From IMG/VR virus record IMGVR_UViG_2585427765_000010: a stretch of 5,220 nt of DNA. One strand, given 5' to 3'. Of this stretch, positions 1 through 5,220 are shown piece by piece; the first letter of the stretch is position 1; every line of letters starts with the position of its first letter. The position numbers were made by a program, and so were the translations under genes. Under the pieces are notes generated by a model. That model worked only from the letters and a program-made list of their open reading frames with translations, was not told the DNA's origin and searched no databases. This DNA comes from a virus. Lineage: Duplodnaviria > Heunggongvirae > Uroviricota > Caudoviricetes.

Positions 1-346
1 TCCTCAAAAGCAGGTGCTGGTTCATTCTGATCAAGGCAGTCAGTACACAAGCTATGAGTGGCAGTCGTTCCTGAAATCACACGGGCTGGAGGGCAGTATG
101 AGCCGTCGCGGTAACTGTCATGACAACGCAGTCGCAGAAAGTTTTTTCCAGTTACTGAAACGTGAACGGATAAAGAAAAAGATCTACGGAACGCGAGAAG
201 AAGCTCGCGGTGATATTTTTGATTACATCGAAATGTTTTATAACAGTAAGCGTCGGCATGGTTCGAGTGATCATATGCCACCAACTGAATACGAAAAACA
301 ATATTATCAGCGGCTCGGAAGTGTCTAGATTATCTGTGGCGATTCA
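1..346 (+). mobile_element. Right-hand end of an IS3-family insertion sequence (left part lies outside the window). The outer boundary is approximate; a candidate terminus is the ...GATTCA at 341-346, consistent with the TG...CA ends typical of the IS3 family.
   Basis: Contains the C-terminal part of an rve-type transposase ORF ending at 328. The sequence after the stop, read inward from 346 (TGAATCGCCACAGATAATCTAGACAC), resembles IS3-family terminal inverted repeats in style. The boundary is inferred, not matched to a known IS. Confidence 0.5.
2..328 (+). CDS. IS3-family transposase OrfB (integrase catalytic core, rve/DDE), C-terminal fragment; 5' end lies outside the window.
   Basis: The frame is open from position 2 (the ORF track starts at the first Met, 14). 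The translation contains the hallmark motifs VHSDQGSQYTS and GNCHDNAVAESFF (carrying the third catalytic acidic residue) and ends in a PPTEYEKQYYQRLG-type tail, typical of IS3-family OrfB. Stop codon TAG at 326-328. It does not match my recollection of IS3, IS2 or IS629 OrfB C-termini, so the specific IS is not assigned. Confidence 0.85.
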   Translation, partial: PQKQVLVHSDQGSQYTSYEWQSFLKSHGLEGSMSRRGNCHDNAVAESFFQLLKRERIKKKIYGTREEARGDIFDYIEMFYNSKRRHGSSDHMPPTEYEKQYYQRLGSV

Positions 347-2075
347 CGCATCGAAAATATCCACTAAATGTATTGCTATTAAGCGGGTCTGATGATGAAC
401 GTCCTGCTGTTTTTATATCAATAGGACATGTCAGGTTGCCGTAACCTTCCATTGCGGATGTGTCTATTATGACAGGGTAGTATTTGCCATCCACTGCACC
501 ACCAGGTGCATTAATGGTCATCGCTTTTGTTAACCCACCCTCAGGGATTTGCAAATTAGTTTTGGCGTCATCAAGGTTATTTGCGCCAGTGCCACCATGA
601 GAAACATCAAGTGGTATCCATTTTTTTTGTGTGTCGCTGTAACACCCCCATGTTGATCCGGTTAAACCCAGGCGCATGGATTTATCATGGTTATATAACC
701 ATGTTTCGCTATTCCATTGGTCAAGACGGTCCACTTCATTTTTGCGAGCGTGGCGTGTCCATTGCGGGCCTGTTGTCGGACTCCAGCGATAGGTATAAAG
801 CGAGCGAGTAGTCCATCCCTGAAATACACCTGTATACGCTGGAGTTCCATCTACCTGACTAATAAACCCCGTAAGACTGCTTTCACCGGATGCAATAGAC
901 GGGAAACCTGTTGCATCAGCCATGATGCGCATAAAGCCAATATAACCTGATGGATTTCCTGAGATGTCAGAGCAATCACGCGGTGATGATCCCAAACCGA
1001 TGTTAGTACCAACAATACCCTGGGCCTGGTTGCGATAATTAAGTGCGTCCGCCGCAGATTTCGCCGCGTTTGTTTCACTGGATTTAGCATTAGTTTCGCT
1101 GGCTTTAGCGTTTGTTTCGCTGCTCTTTGCTGCTGCCTCGCTATTTTTCGCGTTGGTTTCTGATTTTTTGGCTGCTGTCGCGGAGTTTGCCGATGCAGTT
1201 TGTGAGTCTGCTGCCGCCTGTGCGCTGTTATCCGCATTCGTCTCAGACGTTTTTGCGGCCTTCGCGGAATTTCCTGCCGCCGTTGCCGAGGAAGCTGCAC
1301 TACTGGCACTTGATGATGCGTTCGTTTCTGATGATTTCGCTACCTCTTTTGAGGCCGCCGCATCCCGGGCTGAGGTGGCAGCTTCTGACGCTTTCGTGGT
1401 CGCGGTGGATGCAGAAGTGGCTGCTGATTGTTGTGATGCTGCAGCATTCGTTTCTGACGTTTTCGCCGCACCGGCACTGGTGGCTGCCGCGCTTTTTGAG
1501 GACTCTGCTGCGGCAGCACTTTTTAATGCTTCAGTGGCCTTTGTTGATGCCGTTCCTGCGCTGGAAGACGCTGACTGAGCCGACGACGCGGCCTGTCCGG
1601 CTGACGTGCTGGCTGCGCGTGCTGAGCCTGCAGCATCAGTCGCATGGGTTGCCGCCTCACGGGCTGATGTGCTGGCATCGCTGGCTGACTTCTTCGCGGC
1701 TGCCGTGTCCTGTGCCACTGCGGACGCGTTACGCGCCACCTCTTCCACCATCAGTTCAAAACGGCGCAGCGCCTCCGGACGGGCATCATCCTCCGTCATG
1801 GCACCGAGAAAATCATTCAGCGTACCGGGTTGAGAATCTTCATACACGGTGATGGTCCCGGCATGTGACGGCGGGAATCCCTCCACCAACAGAATAACGC
1901 TGTACTGACCGTGCTCAACGTCCATGCTGTAACGCCCGGCTTCATCCGGATTTTCTGAGGCCAGCGTGTTCACCACCACCGTGGTGCTGTTACGTTTTGC
2001 TTTCAGCTGGATTGTGCAGTTCTGTACCGGTTTACCTGCACCGTCTTTCAGTACACCTGAAATCTTTACTGCCAT
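330..2075 (-). CDS. stf: Side tail fibre protein, Stf-like. N-terminal ~110 aa lambda Stf-like, central Ala/Ser/Thr-rich SETNA-type repeats, divergent C-terminal region; probably 3'-truncated by the IS insertion.
   Basis: The ORF track gives 330..2081 beginning at a GTG. The in-frame ATG at 2073-2075 gives MAVKISGVLKDG..., which matches the lambda Stf N-terminus as I recall it, so I place the start at 2075. A weak SD-like GGGGTG sits 5 nt upstream. Stop TAA at 330-332 falls inside the presumed IS terminal sequence. Confidence 0.85.
   Translation of the reverse strand: MAVKISGVLKDGAGKPVQNCTIQLKAKRNSTTVVVNTLASENPDEAGRYSMDVEHGQYSVILLVEGFPPSHAGTITVYEDSQPGTLNDFLGAMTEDDARPEALRRFELMVEEVARNASAVAQDTAAAKKSASDASTSAREAATHATDAAGSARAASTSAGQAASSAQSASSSAGTASTKATEALKSAAAAESSKSAAATSAGAAKTSETNAAASQQSAATSASTATTKASEAATSARDAAASKEVAKSSETNASSSASSAASSATAAGNSAKAAKTSETNADNSAQAAADSQTASANSATAAKKSETNAKNSEAAAKSSETNAKASETNAKSSETNAAKSAADALNYRNQAQGIVGTNIGLGSSPRDCSDISGNPSGYIGFMRIMADATGFPSIASGESSLTGFISQVDGTPAYTGVFQGWTTRSLYTYRWSPTTGPQWTRHARKNEVDRLDQWNSETWLYNHDKSMRLGLTGSTWGCYSDTQKKWIPLDVSHGGTGANNLDDAKTNLQIPEGGLTKAMTINAPGGAVDGKYYPVIIDTSAMEGYGNLTCPIDIKTAGRSSSDPLNSNTFSGYFRCVNRHR
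1055..1715 (-). repeat. Low-complexity coding repeat region inside stf (Ala/Ser/Thr-rich, repeated K-S/A-SETNA heptads), including near-perfect 21-bp tandem units at about 1066-1130.
   Basis: Protein shows ...AKTSETNA...KKSETNAKNSEAAAKSSETNAKASETNAKSSETNAAKS... . On the plus strand the DNA reads gcgtttgtttcactggattta / gcattagtttcgctggcttta / gcgtttgtttcgctgctcttt. Confidence 0.7.
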
Positions 2076-2084
2076 ATTCACCCC

Positions 2085-2139: not shown

Positions 2140-2739
2140 TCAGAACTTATAACCGACACCCACGATGAACCCGTCAGTGCGCCAGTTGCCACTGCCGGAG
2201 CCTTCATAAGCAATATCAACGGCCACGGATTCGGTCGGGTTAAACTGCACGCCAGCTCCCCACGCCAGAGAGGTGTTACTGTGGCGAGCGTCATCACTTC
2301 CGGTCAGCACGTCGTGCGTTTTTCCCTTGTTGTCAGTTACGCGGAGATAATCCCCGGAAAAAGTCGACACACGGCTGTAAGCCACGCCTGCCATCGCATA
2401 CGCGCTGAACCATTCATTCACGCGTACAGACGGCCCCGCCATCACGCTGAACCAGCGGTTACGCACGGAATCTTCATGCCAGCGGGTATCGCTGTAACGG
2501 GTAAGCTGGCGATTCTTGTCTCCTGCATAGCTGAACGACGTCACCATCCCCAGTGTGTCCGTAAACTCATAACGGTATTTCACGTTAATCCCGTTCAGAT
2601 CATCACTGCCGGGAACGTTCGTCCGGGCATGAAGATACCCCGCGCTCAGCGTGGACTGATGTTCAGACGCCCATACAGGCGCACCGGATACGGCCAGACA
2701 AATGGCTGCGGACAAAATGGCGGCATAAAGTTTACGCAT
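2140..2739 (-). CDS. lom: Lom outer membrane protein (Ail/Lom/OmpX/PagC family beta-barrel), lambda lom homologue.
   Basis: 199-aa ORF with an N-terminal signal peptide ([24 protein letters not shown]|SEHQ) and C-terminal ...[10 protein letters not shown] (terminal aromatic typical of OMP beta-barrels). Near full-length match to lambda Lom as recalled. SD GAGAGG (plus-strand 2745-2750) 5 nt upstream of the ATG at 2737-2739. Stop TGA at 2140-2142. Confidence 0.95.

Positions 2740-2805: not shown

Positions 2806-5220
<2,415 letters not shown>

Follow-up and report, generated by a model that had tools for sequence, protein, structure and literature searches.

Side and lateral tail fibres in related phages

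Mosaic tail fibres and prophage genes disrupted by insertion sequences (IS) belong to textbook knowledge. The side tail fibre of phage lambda (Ur-lambda), Stf, is an accessory fibre whose gene follows J and lom; its distal part is His/Gly-rich, resembles P2 gpH and needs a separate chaperone, Tfa. Other fibres carry their chaperone within the same chain. S74 domains are autocleaved chaperones in T5 Ltf, DT57C LtfA/B and K1F (PMC4728585), and autoproteolytic chaperone release is described for K1F, T5 Ltf and GA-1 gp12 (cited in PMC4728585). Lateral fibres of siphoviruses bind O-antigen (PMC8594841, PMC11990801), and in T5-like phages the L-shaped or lateral fibres act as O-antigen-binding primary receptor fibres (PMC8594841). 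The two types meet in phage mEp460, whose side tail fibre (AFM76057, 1202 aa) has a lambda-like N-terminus and ends in Peptidase_S74 (PF13884, residues 1057-1108).

The window, by which we mean the whole 5220-nucleotide stretch of DNA analysed here, carries a stf open reading frame on the minus strand (330-2081). Its product has 581 residues when counted from the ATG at 2075 and contains all the peptides cited in the original prediction, which was made from the letters of the window. Upstream on the same strand are lom (2140-2739) and J (2806 to beyond 5220), and this J-lom-stf order is the layout of both lambda and mEp460. Very probably, the locus is the stf gene of a lambdoid prophage that was cut by an IS and is itself a mosaic of a lambda-type N-terminus and a distal cassette of the S74 class; positions 347-2075 would then represent the 5' 48% of a 1200-codon gene. 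The features are as follows.

1-346, plus strand: right end of a 1229-bp IS3-family IS, with the 3' part of transposase orfB at 2-328 (rve domains, nucleotide identity)
330-346, minus strand: IS-derived tail of the open reading frame, i.e. the last two bases of codon 577, N-R-H-R and a stop codon (frame compared with the intact ...YFRC|GGWSD)
347-349, no strand: 3-bp target-site duplication CGC (uninterrupted allele and strain E203449)
347-542, minus strand: module C, first 65 residues only, Stf 512-576 (conservation and AF2 model)
543-746, minus strand: unit B, one copy of a repeat of about 63-70 aa, a small beta domain plus GGTGA connector, Stf 444-511 (unit HMM)
552-596, minus strand: GGTGANNLDDAKTNL motif, a short helix-and-turn connector that closes unit B, Stf 494-508; module junction (59 aligned units, match ends)
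750-1004, minus strand: module A, a beta-rich knob-like domain, Stf 358-442, 'IGLG..PRDC.DISGNPSGYIGFMRI..GFPSIASGE..LTGFIS..' (conservation, AF2, fold matches)
1026-1673, minus strand: Ala/Ser-rich stretch with SETNAK heptads, read as a putative coiled-coil shaft, Stf 135-350 (composition and heptads)
1674-2075, minus strand: lambda-type N-terminal tail-attachment domain, Stf 1-134 (PF08400, E = 4.7e-71)

Open reading frames in other frames within 330-1310 (62-152 aa, both strands) gave no family match above the cut-off and were treated as chance occurrences.

A lambda-like fibre with a foreign distal part

Where does the lambda-like part end? Residues 1-284 are 86.3% identical to lambda orf-401 (BLASTP, E = 1.5e-104), and the N-terminus of the mEp460 protein, which is near-identical to that of the window Stf, aligns over 94 residues with 9e7m_Ta, a chain of the lambda tail fibre (E = 1.2e-50). 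At the DNA level the similarity to lambda (87.7%) breaks off at window 1234, about residue 281. Protein similarity to the lateral tail fibre of FritzHoffmann (Bas20, Nonagvirus; QXV79286, 1060 aa) starts at residue 319. Between these points lies the Ala/Ser-rich stretch, whose composition and heptads suggest a coiled coil; its last 14 residues, the sole part of it that was modelled, form a helix in the AF2 model. There is also a tandem repeat (21 nt x 2.4, at 1072-1122), and the GC content drops from 0.60-0.63 in the Ala/Ser-rich stretch to 0.44-0.49 distally. The left joint of the exchange is at about residues 281-340, within this putative coiled coil. The original prediction had a swap starting from about residue 340; the exchange holds, and its joint lies further upstream. 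Residues 1 to about 281 would thus comprise an attachment domain of lambda type plus the first part of a coiled-coil shaft, and from the low-complexity coiled coil onward the protein would be the distal cassette of another fibre class, that of the lateral or L-shaped fibres with an S74 chaperone found in some lambdoid phages, T5-like phages and Queuovirinae.

The mEp460 fibre is colinear with the window Stf and 94% identical over all 576 native residues. The two share the J-lom-stf context, modules A, B and C and, further downstream in mEp460, a tfa remnant; they differ in that the mEp460 gene is intact and the window copy is cut by the IS at codon 576/577. An intact protein with this degree of identity was already deposited and annotated, and the phage mosaic is of an ordinary, catalogued kind. 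At the protein level the Bas20 fibre is 80% identical over Stf 319-576, and at the nucleotide level 94% over window 347-968; in the reconstructed gene described below the similarity reaches the C-terminal S74 chaperone. However, its N-terminal attachment domain is only 35% identical and its coiled coil is shorter, and Bas20 is virulent and has neither lom nor a tfa remnant. A modular exchange of the distal fibre, as had been proposed, is borne out by this pairing of a similar distal part with a dissimilar N-terminus, by the abrupt DNA-level join with lambda and by the tfa 3' end left after the new cassette. More distant are the T5-like fibres (BF23 Ltf, DT57C LtfA, HildyBeyeler and others), in which modules A and B are 44-61% identical and the GGTGA connector (DT57C LtfA 450-473) and C-terminal S74 chaperone are likewise present, but which have other numbers of units and other distal receptor-binding parts. 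Their N-terminal attachment is also different, as it is through LtfC rings (PMC10713586). In the cryo-EM structure of DT57C (8hqz), LtfA is resolved at its N-terminus only, which makes the structure uninformative on modules A-C.

Altogether, 160 cluster representatives match the distal part at E <= 1e-3, and tblastn found 475 phage records with weaker relatives (Escherichia 258, Salmonella 162), many of them T5-like genomes of about 110 kb, including BF23 ltfp. A first word-indexed homologue search had yielded 20 matches, mostly fragments.

The tfa remnant and the direction of exchange

Which part came in? A tfa 3' remnant of 33-45 residues is situated after the cassette in the related genomes of E203449, A35 and mEp460, and none is found in Bas20. 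As the remnant stands behind the cassette, it is most simply the scar of a replaced stf-distal part plus tfa. The remnant is the one feature from which the direction of exchange may be read. The reverse course, with the S74-type distal part ancestral in the lambdoid lineage and the lambda-type part incoming, or with virulent phages taking the cassette from prophages, appears unlikely but deserves consideration, as E. coli prophages often carry the cassette (Stf homologues number in the thousands, with the allele in 77 complete genomes) and the events carry no dating. On the other hand, a C-terminal piece of tfa would be useless to an S74-type fibre, yet three independent lambdoid genomes have it right behind the cassette and none is found in Bas20, and the GC content of the cassette is below that of most of the lambda-like neighbouring sequence (0.52-0.65).

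The IS3-family insertion and the missing half of the gene

The IS belongs to the IS3 family, as it has TGA...TCA inverted repeats, a 3-bp duplication and a DDE (rve) orfB, in which Pfam rve, rve_2 and rve_3 matches were found. It is 99-100% identical at the nucleotide level to elements annotated as 'ISEhe3 orfB' or transposase, and the RefSeq annotation of strain E203449 describes it as an IS3 family transposase with programmed frameshift. By the annotation in phage SfIV, the element is probably ISEhe3. The terminal inverted repeat ...GTGGCGATTCA finishes at 346, and both IS ends read TGAATCGCCAC. Strain A35 has the uninterrupted allele, CCACCGCATCG; the IS is flanked by CGC on the left (E203449) and by CGC (window) or CAC (E203449) on the right. 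The junction is exact, with IS sequence at 1-346 and phage-like sequence down to 347, and so native Stf ends at Cys576, and VNRHR and the stop are read from the IS. The 1229-bp element would have inserted between codons 576 and 577, where the reading frame gained five IS-encoded residues followed by a stop codon. Truncation of stf by the IS, part of the original prediction, is evident from the junction, the IS ends and the target duplication.

What has been lost? The rest of stf was located beyond the IS in E203449, and excising two IS copies from that strain leaves an open gene of 1200 codons. The rebuilt protein is 91% identical across all 1200 residues to a cluster representative of the same length, P0021, which also matches Stf 339-576. 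Peptidase_S74 is absent from the window reading frame, which stops at 581; it is present at the C-terminus of full-length relatives, including mEp460 and Bas20, and by its sequence the rebuilt E203449 gene appears to carry it as well. The S74 domain and the rest of the gene lie outside the window and are deduced from these relatives and from E203449, which differs from the window at 1 nt. More than half of the protein is missing (about 624 of 1200 residues), the S74 chaperone included. The IS had been expected to cut off the tip about 60 aa after the motif; the distance is right (66 residues past the motif end), but what is removed is no small tip. The full-length versions that were to be sought among relatives show that module C, a variable region and Peptidase_S74 come after GGTGA. 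In the intact protein, residue 576 would be followed by the rest of a beta-sandwich, the variable distal region and the self-cleaving S74 intramolecular chaperone. By analogy with the lateral fibres described above, the ligand of the variable region would be a surface glycan, for instance O-antigen, as the putative receptor of this fibre type.

The window Stf is a truncated member of the S74-chaperone lateral or L-shaped tail fibres. Because the C-terminal chaperone is lost and a domain is broken, this stf copy is probably a pseudogene, the product of which would not fold into a working trimeric fibre. Could the 576-residue product instead be a functional short fibre, with 340-576 a complete unit able to end a protein naturally? 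The reading frame is open from ATG to stop, the N-terminal attachment domain is intact and many database entries end in this region. Yet entries with no more than about 35 residues after their last match are at most 415 aa long, and most of the source-named ones are labelled 'partial'; the sole exception is P0143 (590 aa), whose match extends no further than the motif. Other representatives have at least 35 further residues, and those of at least 500 aa have at least 82. An autonomous domain found at natural C-termini would have spoken against the original prediction, but long relatives continue past 576 and their conservation runs through it. In addition, the cut separates two strands of one predicted domain, the stop codon comes from the IS and the S74 chaperone is gone. 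A functional short fibre is thus very improbable.

The finding of a pseudogene of a known mosaic type has little biological weight. It is of practical use in annotation, where pipelines leave the region blank or label it 'hypothetical protein'; it should instead be annotated as the truncated middle part of an S74-type side tail fibre.

The distal part compared with lambda

Residues 338-576 (window 347-1061, minus strand) gave E = 1.0 or worse against lambda orf-401 and orf-314 (BLASTP), and their best match in the six frames of lambda 15000-23500 had E = 0.17 and was on the wrong strand (TBLASTN). An HMM of the GGTGA unit had no match in lambda, and lambda Stf is without this unit. The window Stf does not have a distal part of lambda type, i.e. 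one similar to the orf-401 C-terminus or orf-314 and paired with a tfa gene. The C-terminal 240 aa or so had been described as unrelated to lambda Stf, and the colinear alignment that would have contradicted this was looked for by BLASTP and TBLASTN and did not appear. That the lambda distal region simply diverged in place beyond recognition can hardly be the case: the two fibres do occupy one genomic slot and have a common N-terminus, and fibre tips evolve fast, but the change at window 1234 is a step from 87.7% nucleotide identity to nothing, a Nonagvirus fibre whose N-terminus is different has 80-94% identity to the distal part, the folding systems differ (internal S74 chaperone versus separate Tfa), a tfa remnant is left and the unit HMM finds nothing in lambda.

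Modules of the distal cassette

The distal segment of the lambdoid mosaic, 238 aa in length, has no match in Pfam, in NCBIfam or, by phmmer, in the PDB. It had been treated as one foreign region; foreign it is, but 340-576 consists of three modules. Conservation of module A extends to mEp460, Bas20 and T5-like fibres such as that of BF23. The AF2 model, which was run with a 41-sequence alignment, places its strands at model positions 29-103 with pLDDT 85-96, and its fold matches are to knob-containing receptor-binding proteins. (Single-sequence AlphaFold of 339-576 gave pLDDT 33 and was unusable.) Module C has the pattern 'IPEGGL..AP.G..DGKYYPVII...DPMN..TF.GY.RC|GGWSD...' and, as far as it is kept, forms the N-terminal portion of a conserved beta-sandwich; in intact relatives this domain reaches about residue 682, so that its first third is left in the window. 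Conservation in relatives is unbroken through residue 576, and the IS cut falls inside the predicted beta-sandwich between two strands: in the model (pLDDT 84.7), strands 231-237 and 247-253 flank the cut and belong to one strand-rich stretch (181-344).

The GGTGA unit and its connector

Unit B has the consensus R.NL..DR..Q....T...S......L.......WG.Y........PL...QGGTGA.....AR.NL (about 63 aa), with the GGTG, A, N and L columns near-invariant among 59 aligned units. The HMM built from these units matches Stf 444-511 (E = 1e-28), with GGTGA itself at Stf 494-498 (window 582-596). The window Stf has a single copy; in other fibres the unit is present up to about 11 times at a spacing of 62-65 aa. 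It is without a Pfam model.

Is the motif a junction that precedes the variable part, as first suggested? Among 326 local matches from 168 relatives, 204 end no more than 10 residues from the motif (query 170-179), and 82 of the 87 diverging close E. coli homologues depart at Stf 508-513. The latter makes the GGTGA motif a real module junction. For the other five the end had been scored at 576, which raised the prospect of a second break point there; the three inspected also diverge directly after the motif, and gapped alignment over-extension accounts for their apparent end. The connector would be a conserved structural joint between fibre domains, at which related fibres swap their distal parts.

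The unit is found in more than 150 cluster representatives, singly or in arrays of up to about 11, and spans the fibres of sipho-, myo- and podoviruses. In R-type pyocins the connector occurs by itself. In 6cl5_A, an R1 pyocin fibre construct, it occupies chain positions 255-277, where by our numbering the Shaft ends ahead of the lectin-like foot (PMC6116203). The R-type pyocin fibre (PA0620; PDB 6CL5, 6CL6) is otherwise different: it belongs to a contractile-tail particle, has a separate chaperone and is without sequence similarity outside the connector motif. We tentatively suggest that the unit of about 63 aa is a widespread fibre building block and its connector a preferred crossover for distal cassettes between otherwise unrelated phages, a proposal for which the chances are somewhat short of even. 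No Pfam, NCBIfam or named PHROG model represents the unit, and a full-text literature search for GGTGA as a tail fiber motif found no paper. Should the proposal be correct, the unit offers a usable landmark for predicting or engineering fibre chimeras. The sharpness of the exchange point, with 82/87 divergences within six residues, could guide chimeric-fibre design, and the point could help in host-range prediction for E. coli prophages. Chain 7z47_D (SU10) likewise contains a motif region.

A mosaic side tail fibre

The side tail fibre (Stf) gene lies between a transposase gene and lom in the following order.

2-328, plus strand: 3' end of an IS3-family transposase gene (rve, rve_2 and rve_3 domains)
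330-2081, minus strand: tail fibre open reading frame of 581 residues (real start, ATG at 2075)
2140-2739, minus strand: lom (Ail_Lom, E 5e-119)
2806 onward, minus strand: 3' 2.4 kb of the lambda J gene

The original prediction held that the distal part of Stf is unrelated to lambda Stf, and this is confirmed: Stf 1-284 shares 86.3% identity with lambda orf-401, the front portion of lambda Stf, whereas Stf 338-576 finds no match better than E = 1 in orf-401 or orf-314 and no meaningful match in any frame of lambda 15000-23500. The peptides it quoted are present in the open reading frame, with GGTGA at Stf 494-498. Similarity to lambda DNA (87.7%) stops at 1234, about codon 281, within an Ala/Ser-rich, heptad-like shaft, and GC content, 0.60-0.63 in the shaft, drops to 0.44-0.49 distally.

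What does the distal sequence resemble? The 'side tail fiber protein' of the lambdoid phage mEp460 (1202 aa) is colinear with and 93.9% identical to all 576 native Stf residues, and its gene shares the J-lom-stf context; it is the closest known system. The virulent Nonagvirus FritzHoffmann/Bas20 has a lateral tail fibre (1060 aa) that is 80.5% identical over Stf 319-576, with 94% nucleotide identity over 347-968, but the N-terminal domain of this fibre is only 34.5% identical to that of Stf. When 1.84 billion cluster representatives were searched exhaustively with HMMER, 160 relatives were obtained at E <= 1e-3, nearly all of 500-1600 aa. By tblastn the segment is present in 475 phage records, including many T5-like genomes of ~110 kb (BF23 'L-shaped tail fiber protein', HildyBeyeler), Queuovirinae and other mEp lambdoid phages. 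Peptidase_S74 (PF13884) forms the C-terminus of mEp460 Stf and of the Bas20 fibre, as well as of most full-length Escherichia coli homologues; this self-cleaving intramolecular chaperone is also found in T5 Ltf, DT57C LtfA/LtfB and K1F endosialidase (PMC4728585). Judged by these homologies to mEp460, Bas20 and T5-like S74 fibres, Stf is a lambda-type attachment end fused to a distal cassette that belongs to the class of lateral fibres with an S74 chaperone. Such fibres are primary receptor binders of siphoviruses, typically of O-antigen glycans (PMC8594841; PMC11990801).

A 21-nt x 2.4 tandem repeat at 1072-1122, which encodes SETNAK(A/S) heptads of the coiled-coil shaft, sits between the end of lambda similarity and the start of Bas20 similarity and is a plausible left-hand crossover substrate.

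Public annotation misses 347-1091: the RefSeq pseudogene call in E. coli E203449, which carries the IS-cut allele, spans Stf 1-328 only. In another assembly a stretch within this interval is the 200-aa 'hypothetical protein AC16_5397', starting at internal Met382.

The GGTGA unit as a junction

The GGTGA motif was proposed to be a junction preceding the variable part of the fibre, and homologues bear this out. Among the 120 E. coli proteins that best match the 576-aa protein, 87 extend at least 40 residues past the colinear alignment. For 82 of them, residue 508, 510 or 513 is the last to align with the rebuilt full-length protein; the remaining five were assigned an end at 576, and the three inspected also change sequence right after GGTGA.....AR.NLG. 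The motif is followed by at least three distinct distal types, in proteins of ~830, 906-916, 1000 and 1200 aa.

Module limits were taken from 326 local matches in 168 related proteins. Their distribution is non-random (129 begin between query positions 105 and 114, and 204 stop between 170 and 179), and this clustering defines the unit as Stf 444-511, with the consensus R.NL..DR..Q....T...S......L.......WG.Y........PL...QGGTGA.....AR.NL. The GG(T/S)G motif repeats every 62-65 residues in other fibres, up to ~11 times; the unit HMM finds a single copy in the window protein (E 1e-28) and none in any frame of lambda. None of 59 units has a Pfam match. The unit is uncurated in family databases and is the sole mildly new element here. 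Against solved chains, the connector part alone of the unit profile was matched.

7z47_D: putative tail fibre
8vbx_R: gp47
DT57C LtfA, residues 450-473: in a part not resolved in the structure
6cl5_A, R1 pyocin fibre construct: chain positions 255-277

By our numbering, which assumes that the 6cl5 construct starts near residue 323 like the R2 construct 6cl6, the pyocin match lies at the end of the Shaft, a region of 'helix-plus-turn' motifs directly followed by the lectin-like foot that binds the receptor (PMC6116203).

Fibre modules have long been known to be exchanged horizontally; the present case is a clean example with a precise junction, and no new kind of system.

Truncation by insertion sequences

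The IS occupies 1-346 and phage-like sequence reaches 347. The element in E203449 measures 1229 bp; both of its ends read TGAATCGCCAC, and the target duplication is 3 bp (CGC). In the uninterrupted allele of strain A35, sequence is continuous across the insertion site. The window frame reads ...YFRC, five IS-encoded residues and a stop, and the intact gene ...YFRCGGWSD.

Single-sequence structure prediction gave a pLDDT of 33. AlphaFold2 with a 41-sequence alignment gave a mean of 84.7 for residues 339-720 of P0173, a partial E. coli protein that does not differ from the rebuilt gene across this range. The model begins with the end of a helix, followed by:

Stf 367-441: beta domain
Stf 451-487: small beta domain
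Stf 501-507: short helix at the motif
Stf 519-682: strand-rich stretch, interpreted as a beta-sandwich domain

Is the cut region a complete domain, found at natural C-termini? Conservation and the model argue against this, as both run through residue 576. About 28-32 representatives remain aligned across it, the motif ...GY.RCGGWSD... is conserved across it, and in the model it lies between sandwich strands 231-237 and 247-253 (model numbering); residue 576 is no domain boundary. Proteins whose match ends within ~35 residues of the C-terminus are short, and most source-named ones are listed as partial; P0143 is the one exception, and it matches the motif only.

The remainder of stf in E203449 continues on the far side of the IS and is hit by a second, different IS3-family element outside the window (locus L004, 5519-6827; ~1.3 kb, ends TGAACCGCCCCGGG, 4-5 bp duplication), so the gene there is in three pieces. 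Removing both elements gives an open 1200-codon gene; the window product therefore lacks 624 residues, including the S74 chaperone. As this chaperone is known to be needed in trimer folding, the product has presumably lost function.

The E203449 chromosome matches the window at all but 1 nt, so the window isolate is closely related to, yet different from, E203449. The mismatch is at 347-349, in the target duplication at the right IS end, which reads CGC in the window and CAC in E203449.

A Tfa remnant

Directly downstream of the S74-type stf, outside the window, lies a Tfa C-terminus remnant of 33-45 residues, 70-78% identical to lambda Tfa 147-179/191.

E203449: L004 4792-4890
A35: L005 3992-4090
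mEp460: L001 6665-6799 (carries no annotation)

None was found in Bas20. Since the S74 fibre has its own chaperone, the remnant is most simply read as probably the right-hand scar of a replacement of distal stf and most of tfa, and it would also indicate the direction of exchange.

Neighbouring sequences

The opposite strand and other frames yielded nothing of substance. The last 147 residues of J (2806-3249, minus strand), which form the receptor-binding tip of the central fibre, have no counterpart in lambda or mEp460 at DNA level (similarity ends at 3248 and 3188, respectively), and J tips of Stx1a- and Stx2a-converting phages are 98% identical to them. The tip is a second mosaic joint within the same host-recognition region. 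GC-rich hairpins, each with a T run behind it, occur on the minus strand at 2086-2115, after lom, and at 2760-2790, after J; rho-independent terminators are annotated at the corresponding positions in mEp460.
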